From the NCBI GenBank assembly GCA_964486045.1, contig CAZALK010000016.1:67853-131852 (forward strand): 64,000 bases of DNA. Reading direction: 5' to 3'. The DNA is from an uncultured archaeon (GTDB lineage: Archaea > Asgardarchaeota > Lokiarchaeia > Sigyniarchaeales > SOKP01). Position numbers and translations under genes: made by a program. The notes beneath the pieces are model-generated. The model worked only from the letters and a program-made list of their open reading frames with translations, made no database searches and had not been told where the DNA came from. The stretch's first letter is position 1. Each line of letters begins with the position of its first letter. This document shows positions 24,008-29,389 of the stretch, piece by piece.

Positions 24008-24880
24008 TTGAGAAAGTGTGCTAAGATGCAATTATTTAAAATTAGTGATAAAGGAGATTTAGAACCACTTAACAGGTTAAACTTCGAGGAAAATGATGTC
24101 TATCTTGTTGATGATAATCAAAATAATACAATCTATGTTTGGGTGGGAATTCAGGTTAGTCAGGTTAAAAAAGATATCACAGCAGAGCTTGCAAGAAACT
24201 TGGATAAAAGACGTGGTGGATCTACAAAAATCCTCATTATGAAACAAAAAAGAGAATACGGGTCTTTTTTAGCCATGATGCATGATTTGGAAAAAGGTCG
24301 AATCCCAGGCGAGACAACAGAAAGAAGACCAGAGTTTGTCTTTAATGTACCTACTGAAAGCATAGAATCTGTAAAGCTTGATGGAATTCCAGAAGAACGG
24401 GAGGATGCACTTGAAACAAGAACAAGAGCTTGGTTAGCGCAATTAAATGAGCATAGACCATCTAAAGTAGACTCAAAACCTAGTGAGGCCACCAAAGCTG
24501 TCAAATTCATAAGACTTGAGAGGGAGACTGGGAAAATCGAACCAACTGATAAGTCAAATGTTGAAAGAATTACAGTTACAGAACAATTTATAGAAGAAGT
24601 TGAGGAACCTGACCTTAAAACCCATGTAAGAGAGGCGGCATATTATCTTTCGTTAAAAAAATATACGTACGATCAACTCTGTTGGCTTCTGAGCGAGCAG
24701 ATTCAAAAAATAAACCTAGACCTTCCTTCGATTGAGGATATTAAGAAAAAGGCCGAGGAGATCTTCCGATCAGGTTGTACTTATGATGAACTCTGCTGGC
24801 TTAATTCTGAGATGGATTTTCTAATCAAAAAGAGCTTTTTGGAAAAAAATGTTAATAAATTTCGTTACTTAACGAAATAG
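24008..24880 (+). CDS. Gelsolin-domain protein with helical C-terminal domain (1DGelX-like)
   Basis: DVYLVD..IYVWVG..S..KK..A..L..RGG..I.IMKQ..E..SFL gelsolin pattern; C-terminal duplicated A....(Y/C)TYD(Q/E)LCWL.SE helices. Likely start at ATG about 24026. Confidence 0.8.
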   Translation: MRKCAKMQLFKISDKGDLEPLNRLNFEENDVYLVDDNQNNTIYVWVGIQVSQVKKDITAELARNLDKRRGGSTKILIMKQKREYGSFLAMMHDLEKGRIPGETTERRPEFVFNVPTESIESVKLDGIPEEREDALETRTRAWLAQLNEHRPSKVDSKPSEATKAVKFIRLERETGKIEPTDKSNVERITVTEQFIEEVEEPDLKTHVREAAYYLSLKKYTYDQLCWLLSEQIQKINLDLPSIEDIKKKAEEIFRSGCTYDELCWLNSEMDFLIKKSFLEKNVNKFRYLTK

Positions 24881-25518
24881 GTTATTATAGTAATACACCC
24901 TATACTGATAAAGATTGTAGTGGAAATTATGGTTATATATAATTTAGGGACTTTTTTAGCTATTAGAGCTCCCAAGAATACACCCATCCATGCTAAAGTT
25001 ATAAGCGCTAAAAATGATCCGATCCACACTTCTATAGGAGAAGAATAAACGGATGTAAGGGTAACGGTTAGTATTTGAGTTTTATCCCCTAATTCCATAA
25101 TAAAAATAAATAAACATCCCGAGAGATATGGATTACTCTTTAACTTGGTAAGTTTAGATGTAATTATTTTCTTAGAACTAGTTTTCTCTGAATCGTCTTC
25201 AATTATTGTATTTCCAATAGTTTTATTTTGTCGTTCGTGGTAGAGTTTCTTGATTTTGGGTAGTTCTAACAAACCCATAACTAAAAAAAGAATACCGGAG
25301 AATAGAGTAATAATTGAAAGATCTACAATTTGACCAATAAACATTCCAATAATTACCCCAAGAGAGACAATAAGGGCAAAGCCTAGCGTTGCTCCTATAC
25401 CAACCTTATATGATTTATCATATTCCAAAGTTAAATTAAATACAATTAGTTGGGTTTTATCACCAAGCTCCCCAAGAAATAATATCCCATATGTAATAAA
25501 AACAATAATCCAATCCAT
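24865..25518 (-). CDS. TMEM165/GDT1 (UPF0016) Ca2+/Mn2+ transporter
   Basis: Two ELGDKTQ motifs, 6 TM segments. Confidence 0.95.
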   Translation of the reverse strand: MDWIIVFITYGILFLGELGDKTQLIVFNLTLEYDKSYKVGIGATLGFALIVSLGVIIGMFIGQIVDLSIITLFSGILFLVMGLLELPKIKKLYHERQNKTIGNTIIEDDSEKTSSKKIITSKLTKLKSNPYLSGCLFIFIMELGDKTQILTVTLTSVYSSPIEVWIGSFLALITLAWMGVFLGALIAKKVPKLYITIISTTIFISIGCITIITYFVK

Positions 25519-25657
25519 GTTTAATTAAATTTAATTTAAAATAAAAAGTGTCTGTTTAACTTACAAAAAATTTAGTTTGAATGAATTATAATGTCTAAAA
25601 TTAGCAAATTGTAATTAAAATGATAAAAAAAGTAGTACGAAAAAAGATCTAGTTATT

Positions 25658-25963
25658 TCAACCACAACAACTATCGCTCTGTGGGTTTTTTGCTCGAGAA
25701 CGGGCATCATATAAACAACCGCAACCTTGACGTTCTTGTAAGAGTATTGCCATTGCGGGACAGTTTCTTTTACAAGCGCTACATTCAGTACATCTTTCTG
25801 GTTCAAGGACTTCGAATTTTCCATTATTAGTTGGTTGGGGGATCCCAAAGGGACAAATCTCGAAACAGATTCCACAACCCGTGCATAAATCTTGATCAAT
25901 CGAAATTTTTGGAAGTACAATATTTATATTTATCGAAGTGGTTTTTAGGGTTATTTTTTTCAC
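25658..25963 (-). CDS. HgcB-like 2x[4Fe-4S] ferredoxin
   Basis: CTGCGICFEICP and CTECSACKRNCP, then GCGC and C-terminal CCG; directly downstream of the hgcA-like gene. Confidence 0.75.
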   Translation of the reverse strand: MKKITLKTTSININIVLPKISIDQDLCTGCGICFEICPFGIPQPTNNGKFEVLEPERCTECSACKRNCPAMAILLQERQGCGCLYDARSRAKNPQSDSCCG

Positions 25964-26021
25964 ACCTTTTTTTCTTTCTAACTATATTAAGGGCTTAATC
26001 ATATTTATGTTATTTCATAAT

Positions 26022-27680
26022 TTAAAATAAAACAATTCCACTTATTGTCAATGCTACTCCAATGATTAACAAAAGAATATGGATCTTCCTAAATGTGGGA
26101 TACTCTTTCTGAATCTCACCCGGACTAGTAGCCATTGAGTATCCACTCAAACTCATAGTTGAGAAGAAGGCAACCCAGAAATAAAAGATAACATTCCAGA
26201 GAATTAGAAAAAAATTCGAATGTAATACCCATGTTAGGCCCCCCAATAGAAAGACATTAAGAATCCCAAAGAAAATACCTTTAATTATGAACTTCCGAGT
26301 GAATTCTGATAAAGGAAACAAAACGGTAATTAGAGCATTAGTTACAATGATCCAGAGCCAAATCTCACCTATCCTCCAAAATTTACTGATCCAAAATGGT
26401 GGATGAATAAAGCTCAACCCAACGAGAAGGAGTAGCAAGACGATTGAAGGTAGAAAAAATATTTTTCGTAGTAAAAAAGTCGTATGGGTAATAAATGCTC
26501 TTAGTCGGTGAGAACTTGTAAATTTAGCGAGTTTCCATTTATCGGGTTTTTTAGCAGGACGATCTTTTAAAAACTGCGGTAAGTATTTTGCCCAGACAGG
26601 TCCGAACAGAAGATTAAAGGGGAAGCTTGGTGATTCACTAGATATCAAGGGGGCAGCTACCCCTCCTGCTGAAAGTTGGGGAAGTATTAAGGTTTTTCTA
26701 GTAGTAACATTTTCAATCCCTGAGGCTTCAACAGCCTCAATGAGTTGTTTGTTACCAAAATTATTTCCTCGTGCTGCACACCATACATTTATACCATCAG
26801 AATCTACACACAACACCCAAGAATCTATTCCCTTAAGGGCACGCATAACTCTAATAAAAGTATAAAGATAATTCGCAGTTGCTATAACCGGTGATTTTTC
26901 ATCTGGGTGTCCTGATTGATAAATTCCCGGTTCAATTGGGATATGATCTGCTTGACCTGTAAAAATACATTTATAAATTTGCATCTGGGATCGAAATCCT
27001 TTGAATTTCCGAGCTGGTGGTCTATAATATCCAGGTTCACTATCATCTCCTTTAGTAGTTTTTTGTAATTCCAATGCTCTAATAGAACCATGCTTCCAAT
27101 TCTCTTCAGCCACTATCTTAAATCCTATAGGTTCAAGATAATTAATAAACCATTTTACTCGAGATGTACTTGGAAGTCGAAGTCTTCTCAGTTTTTTCTT
27201 ATACCACCATCGTTTTAAGTTAAACACTATTTTCCAAAACCCAGAGGGAACAAATTCAGCACCGATAATTAATTTTCCATTTTGGCTTAGTTTTTTCCAT
27301 GCATTTCTTAGAAAAATCTGTTGTTCAAATGGTCTCAGTTCAGAAATCATAAAAGTACTTACTATAACATCTATATAACTCTCTTCAGTGGGTATTTCTG
27401 TGATAGTTCCTATTTGATATGTTAATTTCACTTCTTTATCTGTAGGATAATTTTTCATAGCAGTATTAATCATTTGAAAATTTTTGTCTATTGCTATTAC
27501 TTCATTCCCTTTTAACGCTATATTAGCAGCAAGGACACCTGTACCACATCCTACTTCCAGTACTGAATGAGAGGTTCCAATTTGATTTAGGATCCAATCT
27601 TTAACTTTGATATTAACCCCTTTGGTTAAAGCTGTAAATTTCTCTTCATACGTATCTGGTTCTTCTTCTAGCTTTCGCAT
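26022..27680 (-). CDS. Fusion of class I SAM methyltransferase and HgcA-like corrinoid-binding membrane protein
   Basis: N-terminal VLEVGCGTG/AID motifs; middle PGIY..G.PD..SPV..TANY, DSDGINVWCAARG, LILPQLSAGGVAA, FGPV; 4-5 C-terminal TM helices with MSLSGYS..TS....KE. Confidence 0.88.
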   Translation of the reverse strand: MRKLEEEPDTYEEKFTALTKGVNIKVKDWILNQIGTSHSVLEVGCGTGVLAANIALKGNEVIAIDKNFQMINTAMKNYPTDKEVKLTYQIGTITEIPTEESYIDVIVSTFMISELRPFEQQIFLRNAWKKLSQNGKLIIGAEFVPSGFWKIVFNLKRWWYKKKLRRLRLPSTSRVKWFINYLEPIGFKIVAEENWKHGSIRALELQKTTKGDDSEPGYYRPPARKFKGFRSQMQIYKCIFTGQADHIPIEPGIYQSGHPDEKSPVIATANYLYTFIRVMRALKGIDSWVLCVDSDGINVWCAARGNNFGNKQLIEAVEASGIENVTTRKTLILPQLSAGGVAAPLISSESPSFPFNLLFGPVWAKYLPQFLKDRPAKKPDKWKLAKFTSSHRLRAFITHTTFLLRKIFFLPSIVLLLLLVGLSFIHPPFWISKFWRIGEIWLWIIVTNALITVLFPLSEFTRKFIIKGIFFGILNVFLLGGLTWVLHSNFFLILWNVIFYFWVAFFSTMSLSGYSMATSPGEIQKEYPTFRKIHILLLIIGVALTISGIVLF

Positions 27681-28030
27681 AAAAGTAACAGCGATGATAA
27701 TCCCTCCTTTAACATGCTAATCATTATGATTGATAATTAAATTATGGATATTGAAAAAAAAAATTTAATGAAAAATTAAAGTTTTTATTTTTATAAATAT
27801 TCTACGTTATTTAAAAATTGTAATTAAGACTAATTAATGTCTGAATAATTTATCCTAATTAGCATTCTGACAAAAAATCGGTCAATAGTGGCGGAAATAA
27901 TTATTAATTTAGATACAAAACGTTTATATAGAACCTTTAATCCTTATATAAATACTATTCTTTAATTTAATTTTAAAATAAAAATAAACAAAAATAGAAA
28001 TAAAAAAAAAGTATTCAAAAGGTAATTTTA

Positions 28031-28807: not shown

Positions 28808-29389
28808 TTAAGCAGCAAGTTTTTTAAGCACGTGAGCAAAATTAATACCTAAATTCTTGAGTGTCTGAATTCCCTCTTTATCATCTAAAACTTCACCTGG
28901 TTTTCTCCCTATCGCTAGATTCCAATAGGTAGAACCAACTACAATCATTTCTTTGATTAGAAAGAAATAGTTTATACTTGAAAAGACATGATTCGCCCCA
29001 GCACGTCTAACTGCAACTACAGCAGCTCCCAATTTATTTTTTAATAGCCTTCTAGTGGCATATCCTGCTCGTTCTATTAACGCTTTTGTACTTGCGGTTA
29101 AATCTGAGAAGTAGGTTGGAGAGCCAATAATTATCCCGTCGGATTCAAGCATTATCCTAATATACTCATTCATATTATCTCCTTGAATGGTGCATTTTTG
29201 ATCATTGTTAACAATGCACTCATTGCAAGCAATACACCCTTGTAACTTCTCTCTCCCAAACCAAATGTATTCACACTCAATTCCAGCAGATTTTAATTCG
29301 TCCATTACTAAATTTAAACAATGGTATGTATTCCCCTTTTTTCGAGGGCTTCCATTAAATAGTGCAACCTTCATAAAAACCATCCCCAA
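28808..29389 (-). CDS. Iron-sulfur flavoprotein (flavodoxin-like)
   Basis: GSPRKKGNT, CIACNEC....KC, GSPTYF and RRAGA motifs. Confidence 0.92.
   Translation of the reverse strand: MGMVFMKVALFNGSPRKKGNTYHCLNLVMDELKSAGIECEYIWFGREKLQGCIACNECIVNNDQKCTIQGDNMNEYIRIMLESDGIIIGSPTYFSDLTASTKALIERAGYATRRLLKNKLGAAVVAVRRAGANHVFSSINYFFLIKEMIVVGSTYWNLAIGRKPGEVLDDKEGIQTLKNLGINFAHVLKKLAA

Follow-up and report, generated by a model that had tools for sequence, protein, structure and literature searches.

A CpaM-like methyltransferase fused to an HgcA-like corrinoid protein, and its HgcB-like ferredoxin partner, as a candidate methyl relay in a Lokiarchaeial genome

A two-gene unit is described here from a 64,000-nucleotide stretch of DNA (the window; positions 67,853 to 131,852 of contig CAZALK010000016.1) of an uncultured Asgard archaeon of the class Lokiarchaeia (SOKP01). 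The first gene encodes a CpaM-like S-adenosylmethionine (SAM) methyltransferase fused to an HgcA-like corrinoid protein, and the second encodes an HgcB-like ferredoxin. A first-pass annotation of the window, made from the letters alone, had proposed that this pair is a self-contained metal(loid) methylation module. The fusion gene is real and widely conserved. The window-type arrangement is a new form of the already catalogued CpaM/HgcAB-like kind, distinguished by a cap motif of its own, profile scores below threshold and a free ferredoxin with a Cys tail.

Organization of the two-gene unit

The fusion gene (26022..27680, minus strand) encodes a protein of 552 aa, in which the open reading frame (ORF), Pfam and NCBIfam matches, relatives and an AlphaFold2 (AF2) model delineated a CpaM-like SAM methyltransferase, an HgcA-like corrinoid domain and a five-helix membrane domain, in agreement with the three-part anatomy given by the first-pass annotation. 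The methyltransferase domain (residues 1-207; 27060..27680) has a Rossmann fold and was assigned from the CpaM profile, from invariant residues and from structural matches to class I methyltransferases; it carries SAM motif I, VLEVGCGTG (residues 40-48; 27537-27563), as read from the fusion ORF, and the acidic residue D65 at the end of strand 2. In Pfam, residues 40-139 matched the Methyltransf_11 and Methyltransf_25 families (E about 1e-13), and residues 233-338 matched the CdhD family (PF03599, E 6e-14). The inter-domain linker (residues 208-245; 26946..27059), defined by the conservation profile of the alignment, consists of a variable hinge followed by an EPGYYRP..KF.KG motif and C238; no indel or frame problem was found at this junction.

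The corrinoid-binding domain (residues 246-385; 26526..26945) was assigned from PF03599 and from the HgcA and HgcAB-like profiles. Its cap helix, GINVWCAARG (residues 296-305; 26766..26795), contains Cys301 (codon 26778-26780), the presumed thiolate ligand of cobalt. The membrane domain (residues 386-552; 26025..26525) consists of five long helices, as assigned by DSSP on the model, and includes a conserved loop, STMSLSGYSMATSPGEIQKEY, at residues 507-527.

A 58-bp spacer (25964..26021) separates the fusion gene from the ferredoxin gene (25658..25963, minus strand, GTG start), which encodes a 2x[4Fe-4S] ferredoxin of 101 aa, recognized by Fer4 families and by the HgcB profile NF040864. Its cluster cysteines are C27/30/33/37 and C58/61/64/68, the CTECSAC motif occupying residues 58-64. 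These are followed by GCGC (residues 80-83, with C81 and C83; 25715-25726) and by a terminal CC pair (C99 and C100; 25664-25669), with G101 as the last residue. Both ORFs, the spacer and all motifs quoted in the first-pass annotation were present as described. The span that it gave for the module, 25658-27707, was correct at its left end but ran 27 nt beyond the ATG at its right end; the frame is open upstream.

This open frame extends 12 codons 5' of the ATG (27681-27716, minus strand), giving 564 codons in all, and the upstream peptide, ..IIIAVTF-MRKLE, resembles the (V/M)..IAVVY-MRKLE conserved in orthologs that have an upstream GTG or ATG start. The fusion gene may actually start at a non-canonical codon, ATT or ATC, that lies a few codons 5' of the ATG and directly after GGAGG.

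The AT-rich intergenic region 5' of the fusion gene (27681..28030) contains no regulator gene and is the presumed promoter. The ferredoxin stop is followed by a T-rich tract (25611..25657) that includes stretches of six and seven T and probably acts as an archaeal terminator. Because the T-runs come after the ferredoxin stop, the two genes probably form a bicistronic unit with its own promoter. In a scan for bacterial-type promoters and terminators, which is uninformative for an archaeal locus, 19 promoter-like sites were returned where 16.7 were expected, and no terminator was found.

Comparison with known protein families

The NCBIfam curated cut-offs are 180 bits for CpaM (corrinoid protein-associated methyltransferase; NF043040), 285 bits for HgcAB-like proteins (NF043039), 275 bits for HgcA (NF040863) and 99 bits for HgcB (NF040864). 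Residues 1-205 of the fusion protein matched the CpaM profile over positions 5-214 of 216 (E 4e-37), by far the best NCBIfam match of the methyltransferase domain, in agreement with the earlier remark that this domain recalls CpaM. The match is full-length, the SAM motif is present and the domain is fused in frame with an HgcA-like corrinoid protein, but the score of 127.6 bits is below the cut-off; in the genome search the fusion scored 135.1 bits and the next-best methyltransferase 68.8 bits.

Scores below the respective cut-offs were likewise obtained for the fusion protein with the HgcA profile (residues 246-547, E 7e-49, 166.7 bits) and, over the same residues, with the HgcAB-like profile (E 4e-50, 171.3 bits), the latter match ending at profile position 272 of 350, and for the ferredoxin with the HgcB profile (E 8e-15, 54.5 bits). 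In control searches, the true HgcA P0196 scored 367 bits, the HgcB at locus L081 119.6 bits and a split Asgard CpaM 265 bits, and bona fide Asgard HgcAB-like members scored 385-441 bits (401 bits for P0238).

The fusion protein shares with HgcA the PF03599 corrinoid domain, homologous to that of the corrinoid iron-sulfur protein (CFeSP), the Cys and Trp of the cap, and a C-terminal membrane domain of about five transmembrane helices, which were present in the model. It differs from canonical HgcA in its N-terminal methyltransferase domain, in its score and its place outside the HgcA clade, and in the cap motif. Canonical HgcA has N(V/I)WCA(A/G)GK, as in NVWCAAGKGT of P0196, and 110 of the 147 superfamily representatives in our motif census read [VI]WC[AS][AG]GK; the fusion clade reads NVWCAARG(G/N)x, keeping NVWC and AA but replacing GK by RG in 56 of 56 members. 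The ferredoxin-fused HgcAB-like proteins read NVWCAA(G/C/S/A)GGH, for example in P0238.

The ferredoxin resembles HgcB in its two CxxCxxCxxxCP motifs, a Cys equivalent to HgcB C73 and a C-terminal Cys pair, and differs from it in reading ECSAC for ECGAC, in the additional Cys C81 and in its sub-threshold score. The homologous corrinoid-binding domain is shared with CdhE/AcsC, the large subunit of the Wood-Ljungdahl CFeSP (PDB matches 9fzy_F, 2h9a_A and 4c1n_A, E about 1e-7), but the fusion protein lacks the TIM-barrel and [4Fe-4S] N-terminal parts of CdhE, which in turn has no Cys cap. With ArsM (NF008823) it shares the class I SAM methyltransferase fold, but the match was confined to the Rossmann core (34.3 bits against a cut-off of 263), without the As(III)-binding Cys triad.

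The same three modules constitute the CpaM and HgcAB-like proteins of NCBIfam, the latter being the 'fused HgcAB' of P. furiosus and M. methylutens. Because NCBIfam names this association of CpaM with an HgcAB-like fusion, the kind is already known, though uncharacterized, and bona fide split and triple-fused members occur in other Asgard genomes; the first-pass view of an undescribed system does not hold at the level of the kind. The window's arrangement differs in that the methyltransferase is fused and the ferredoxin free, the reverse of the catalogued one, in which the ferredoxin is fused to the C-terminus. It also differs in the cap, NVWCAARG instead of NVWCAAxGGH, in scoring below both cut-offs, and in the GCGC...CC tail of its ferredoxin, which the aligned fused examples do not have. 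A literature search found no paper joining 'CpaM' with HgcA or using 'corrinoid protein-associated methyltransferase'. Asgard sequences were placed by Lin et al. in a fused-HgcAB subtree after the first 327 alignment columns had been discarded as poorly aligned (PMC10083202), and these columns may have held the CpaM-like domain.

Conservation and distribution of the fusion

A search of 5.8 billion proteins returned 671 matches to the fusion protein. The best 120 of these came from Asgard lineages in assemblies from NCBI, JGI, ENA and Logan; nearly all were 546-578 aa long, with the methyltransferase and CdhD domains and 62-91% identity. Annotation of the relatives extended only to 'methyltransferase domain-containing protein'. 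A misassembled junction was rejected, given at least 120 full-length relatives in independent assemblies and a conserved linker motif. Within the window's own family, orthologs with 52-68% identity were found in 31 of 41 sampled genomes, four of the copies being cut by contig ends.

The mean column identity was 67% in an alignment of 56 members and highest in the corrinoid-binding domain (0.80). The residues for SAM binding (G44, C45, G46, G48 and D65) and the cap-helix segment N298-V-W-C301-A-A-R304-G305 were invariant, and the EPGYYRP..KF.KG motif was conserved after the hinge. The only conserved cysteines of the protein were C45, C238, C291 and C301, of which C45 alone lies in the methyltransferase domain.

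The source genome contains one copy of the fusion and, on another contig, a gene for a CdhE-like corrinoid protein. Although this genome is 99% complete and has genes for two or more corrinoid proteins, CobS (TIGR00317) was not found in it; the archaeon probably relies on cobamide import. Second, distant full-length matches (27-29% identity, frames of about 592 aa) with one to three in-frame TAA, TAG or TGA codons were observed in five genomes (G083:C53, G008:C11, G171:C10, G174:C23 and G117:C681). They could be pseudogenes, split genes or, in the case of TGA, genes with selenocysteine.

Phylogeny and module arrangements

An exhaustive HMMER search with the corrinoid and membrane part yielded 931 representatives at 50% clustering; over some 15 of these the score drops sharply, from about 400 to 150 bits. 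In a corrinoid tree rooted on CdhE sequences, which formed the outgroup with a support of 100, true HgcA constituted one clade (98) and the window's fusions another (99, 13 rows), outside true HgcA, as were the other methyltransferase-associated forms. Both the motif census and this tree show that the fusion proteins are a distinct clade with altered motifs, which the first-pass annotation had anticipated. CdhE/AcsC membership was rejected, as only the corrinoid domain matches and CdhE is the outgroup. A quick tree placed the fusion clade with other methyltransferase-fused clades with weak support (86-87), and in an approximately unbiased (AU) test, a topology in which the fusion clade was forced together with true HgcA was not rejected (p-AU 0.646). 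Because of the latter result, it cannot be claimed from the corrinoid domain alone that the fusion is closer to HgcAB-like proteins than to HgcA.

Four arrangements of the three modules were found in Asgard genomes. These are 1) the methyltransferase-corrinoid fusion with a free ferredoxin, as in the window, of which distant versions (30-34%) occur in two other families; 2) all three modules in one chain of 596-601 aa (L059:5682-7472 and L060:7760-9565), which scored 261 bits with the CpaM and 385 bits with the HgcAB-like profile, both above the cut-off; 3) a free CpaM (265 bits) with an HgcAB-like protein (441 bits); and 4) methyltransferase, corrinoid protein and ferredoxin all encoded separately. 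The tree of the methyltransferase domain gave exactly the clades of the corrinoid tree, with eight label changes, the minimum possible. This agreement between the trees shows that the two parts of the protein have diversified together.

Four genomes of the window's family (loci L087-L090 in G113, G177, G104 and G071) carry a classical CpaM (219-228 aa) and an HgcAB-like protein (363-366 aa, cap NVWCGACGDD) and, after these, a conserved protein of some 190 aa; this classical pair was not found in the source genome. Some genomes of the family hold both the window-type fusion and the classical pair. Because both systems occur in the same genomes, they are co-existing paralogs, and probably not isofunctional. 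A gene for an AmmeMemoRadiSam-type radical SAM protein (TIGR04337, 235 bits) was observed within a few genes of CpaM and HgcAB-like genes at six of seven split loci and at one fused locus (L061-L064, L066 and L058).

Canonical HgcA above the cut-off was found in one of the 201 sampled Asgard genomes. This lone gene (G025:C110:1082-3701) lies on a short contig of a genome with 9% contamination, and an ArsM-like gene (153 bits) is located some 1 kb away from it.

These results bear on whether the two genes encode an Asgard mercury methylase, with Hg(II) as the native acceptor and the SAM-binding function moved to the fused domain. In favor of this, the Cys cap, the Trp, five transmembrane helices, the HgcB-type Cys83 and the terminal CC are all present. 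The sister relation to true HgcA is allowed by the AU test, and ars genes frequently border canonical hgcAB loci as well (PMC7438021; 10.1101/2022.10.17.512643). Nevertheless, we consider a native mercury methylase to be quite unlikely. The fusion lies outside the well-supported true-HgcA clade, its scores of 167 against 275 bits (HgcA) and 54.5 against 99 bits (HgcB) are below the cut-offs, and GK is replaced by RG throughout the clade. No methylmercury was formed by P. furiosus or M. methylutens, the only relatives of the CpaM type that have been tested in culture (PMC5893877). Furthermore, the gene is near-universal, with 52-91% identity, in a family of sediment archaea, which fits a housekeeping or detoxification function better than a co-metabolic one. 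The doubt that the first-pass annotation raised about mercury as the acceptor was thus reasonable, considering both the scarcity of canonical HgcA among Asgard genomes and the mercury-negative results with the two cultured carriers of fused HgcAB-like proteins.

Structural models and the ferredoxin partner

The AF2 model of the fusion protein, built with 56 relatives, had a predicted local distance difference test (pLDDT) score of 87.8 and a predicted template-modeling (pTM) score of 0.85. It comprises a Rossmann domain, a corrinoid domain in which residues 299-305 form a short helix, and the long C-terminal helices 389-425, 434-458, 464-487, 490-514 and 520-551 (DSSP). The best match of the model in a PDB library was the deposited integrative model of HgcAB (9a0b_A; E 4.6e-13, 332 columns), and no solved HgcA was found when the PDB was searched by sequence. 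The N-terminal domain matched generic class I SAM methyltransferases of the library, including phospholipid and quinone methyltransferases.

The ferredoxin gene is tightly paired 3' of the fusion gene in nearly all of the relatives' loci. Among 23 ferredoxin partners, the eight cluster cysteines and the segment G80-C81-G82-C83-L84 were invariant and C100 was found in at least 90%; the GCGC...CC tail was conserved in all clades with a free ferredoxin. C83 aligns with the Cys of GVGC in the bona fide HgcB that scored 119.6 bits. In HgcB the corresponding residue, C73, is essential and is named together with C94 and C95 (PMC11588087), and it is replaced by selenocysteine in GVGU variants (PMC13188914).

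The complex of the fusion protein with the ferredoxin was modeled with an ipSAE of 0.70, against 0.00 for the best control; a score of 0.70 was reached by 58 of 80 solved complexes and by two of 110 mismatched pairs. The model runs agreed in at least 92% of contacts, with a pLDDT of the partner of at least 75. The modeled interface includes, on the fusion side, the cap helix (300-306), an invariant PQLSAGG loop (335-345) and a conserved loop of the membrane domain (509-531), and on the ferredoxin side, the cluster regions, GCGC (78-88) and CC (99-100). The model supports binding of the ferredoxin at the cap helix of the fusion protein.

Gene neighborhoods in this genome and its relatives

Gene neighbors were clustered over 41 loci, and four of the resulting clusters are cited here as c2, c3, c5 and c6. 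In 14 of 21 loci of the window's clade, the fusion gene has an adjacent gene for an ArsR/SmtB regulator (69.9 bits, cut-off 55), and in 10 of the 21 a gene for an ACR3-family arsenite permease (267 bits over its full length, cut-off 283) lies directly upstream in the same direction. One locus (L029) has the string DUF166-ACR3-fusion-ferredoxin-c5-c6 with gaps of 3-42 nt and a divergent arsR, and another genome (G129) has the operon-like string MarR-ArsM-DUF166-fusion-ferredoxin on one strand, in which ArsM scored 364 bits. An arsR gene was also found directly upstream of the distant f7 fusions and of P0189. The alpha-3 CVC site is present in all 18 ArsR proteins, and an N-terminal CxCxxC in most of them. 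The MarR-type regulators have three to four vicinal Cys pairs, the Cys-rich MarR gene of sister loci standing 5' of the fusion gene, and c5 proteins have CxC and Cys-rich tails. Atlas look-ups gave for c5 the leads Thioredoxin_3 and TsoX only at 0.89, below 0.9, and none for c6.

In canonical systems, association of hgcAB with acr3, arsC, arsM and arsR has been reported (PMC7438021), and in P. mercurii an ArsR-like regulator controls hgcAB and responds to arsenic (10.1101/2022.10.17.512643).

At the window locus itself, one flank holds genes for a membrane protein and an FMN reductase, and the other flank genes for a GDT1 transporter and a gelsolin. The neighbor at 28808-29389 (minus strand) encodes an FMN_red-family flavoprotein with a CxxCxxC stretch, and is adjacent in two sister genomes as well; it was not called as ArsH, since Pfam FMN_red includes ArsH but NCBIfam gave only weak WrbA matches. 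The neighbor at 24865-25518 (minus strand) encodes the GDT1-family cation transporter.

The fusion and ferredoxin genes, on contig 16, stand apart from the ars genes of this organism, which were found on contigs 25 and 4, and because of this separation the window copy stands alone. Contig 25 (L086:12734-16339) carries an island of arsR, ACR3, a 96-aa ORF, c6 and YdjM, preceded by c2 and c3, without the fusion cassette; the 96-aa ORF, considered as a homolog of c5, was rejected (E 4.6). On contig 4 (L085:3352-5972) the gene for a Cys-rich MarR heads a string that also contains those for a methyltransferase of 271 aa and a bona fide ArsM (325 bits, above the cut-off). This MarR, beside ArsM, is the only homolog in the genome of the Cys-rich MarR of sister loci. 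In the genus g4 an island of the contig-25 type carries the fusion cassette. Since the same island occurs with the cassette in g4 and without it here, the two-gene cassette has moved in or out as a unit.

The absence of a metal gene from many loci, including that of the window, raises the question of whether a metal(loid) is the acceptor. The methyl group could go instead to an organic or membrane-associated molecule, such as a lipid, a quinone or an intermediate of a natural product, or the protein could perform other Co(I) chemistry such as dehalogenation of halomethanes. The protein is membrane-embedded, the best structural matches of its methyltransferase domain include phospholipid and quinone methyltransferases, and dechlorination of CCl4 by HgcAB is described in a preprint (10.64898/2026.04.26.720869). 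A non-metal(loid) acceptor is nevertheless unlikely in our estimation, since the conserved Cys-rich tail of the ferredoxin, GCGC...CC, would be hard to explain with an organic acceptor, and since loci of differing configuration repeatedly link the module to ArsR of the CVC type, Cys-rich MarR, ACR3 and ArsM. In addition, the structural matches of the methyltransferase domain are generic, and dehalogenation would need no SAM domain.

Proposed mechanism and acceptor

The analysis shows the identity of the modules, the conservation of their residues and their coupling by fusion and co-diversification, and it supports the ferredoxin interface; from these results and the enzymology of HgcAB (PMC11588087) we infer each chemical step and the acceptor. 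On balance, the two genes may be taken to encode a three-module CpaM/HgcAB-like methyl relay from SAM to a cobamide and on to a thiophilic metal(loid). In the first step, by analogy with the biochemistry of HgcAB, the HgcB-like ferredoxin would dock on the face of the cap helix and reduce the cobamide to Co(I). In the second, suggested by the fusion and the co-diversification, the fused CpaM-like domain would bind SAM and methylate Co(I), giving a methyl-Co(III) species ligated by Cys301. In the third, the methyl group could pass to a thiophilic metal(loid) held by C81, C83, C99 and C100 of the ferredoxin at the membrane surface. The five-helix domain would anchor the site and possibly gate entry or exit.

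That a relay from SAM through cobamide and ferredoxin operates as such is likely. Purified HgcAB forms Cys-ligated methylcob(III)alamin from SAM (PMC11588087), so the earlier statement that SAM is the methyl donor for HgcAB has its basis in the literature. The further statement, that the fusion hard-wires a SAM-to-cobalamin loader onto the corrinoid protein, follows soundly from the gene fusion and the co-diversification but was worded too strongly for a methyl transfer that is deduced.

The SAM domain and the ferredoxin may alternatively serve only in repair, by reductive re-methylation of Co(II), while the routine methyl group comes from another donor, such as a methylated pterin or a small molecule, by way of a protein encoded elsewhere. 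In methionine synthase, an AdoMet domain and flavodoxin serve such reactivation. A reductant, a SAM domain and a corrinoid together correspond formally to this reactivation system of MetH, and the genome has a CdhE-like corrinoid protein of the Wood-Ljungdahl type; canonical HgcA, moreover, works without CpaM (PMC11588087). However, no second methyltransferase of the MeTr, MtaB or MtaA type was conserved beside the module in about 45 loci examined, the methyltransferase, corrinoid protein and ferredoxin being the only invariant partners, and for HgcAB SAM is the catalytic donor (PMC11588087). A function in repair only is therefore fairly unlikely.

With the relay from SAM to a metal(loid) as the preferred interpretation, a soft metal(loid) is the most likely class of acceptor, and a reasonably plausible one. 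Arsenic, in the form of As(III) or methylarsenite, leads the candidates on account of the ars operons that include relatives, and is proposed here tentatively; mercury may be a side substrate. For the window copy itself, there is no local clue to the acceptor, the arsenic context being found in relatives only.

Several observations weigh against this interpretation. The neighbors of the window locus include no ars gene, metal transporter or regulator, and several other relatives stand in unrelated gene contexts, many without a metal gene. The source genome already has a canonical ArsM, and a complementary distribution of ArsM and the fusion was not seen in the window's family, where 10 of the 31 genomes that have the fusion, and four of the 10 in which it was not found, contained ArsM. 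The methyltransferase domain has no ArsM-like Cys triad. The ACR3 linkage appears to be essentially one ancestral arrangement in one sublineage; because of this, the independent events of ars linkage are few, and a link to arsenic that rests on about five independent arrangements is suggestive. In the complex model, the ferredoxin makes no contact with the methyltransferase domain, and because an HgcAB model has been deposited, part of the complex score may reflect likeness to that model and not independent evidence. Finally, canonical HgcAB works without a separate methyltransferase (PMC11588087), and for this reason the role of CpaM is not self-evident.

It is also conceivable, though rather doubtful at present, that the clade constitutes a second, cobamide-dependent route of methylation of arsenic or other metalloids in anaerobes, distinct from ArsM, in which a Cys-ligated methyl-cobamide, loaded from SAM, would act on As(III) or methylarsenite bound by the Cys tail of the ferredoxin at the membrane.

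Implications

The native purpose of HgcA-type proteins has long been open, mercury methylation looking co-metabolic. The fusion family provides genomic evidence, independent of the enzymology of 2024, that SAM feeds the corrinoid in the HgcA superfamily, and the repeated incorporation of its relatives into ars operons points to a concrete native substrate. Because canonical HgcA was found in just one of 201 sampled Asgard genomes, surveys of putative Asgard mercury methylators may be counting these paralogs. Strict motif filters that require GK, conversely, would miss the fusion clade. As a compact and strongly conserved system of two genes, the module should be suited to the heterologous expression route already taken for HgcAB. 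If the clade does represent a second route of metalloid methylation, then methylation of metalloids, and not of mercury, would be ancestral in the HgcA superfamily, and canonical HgcAB would be a derived form that lost CpaM.

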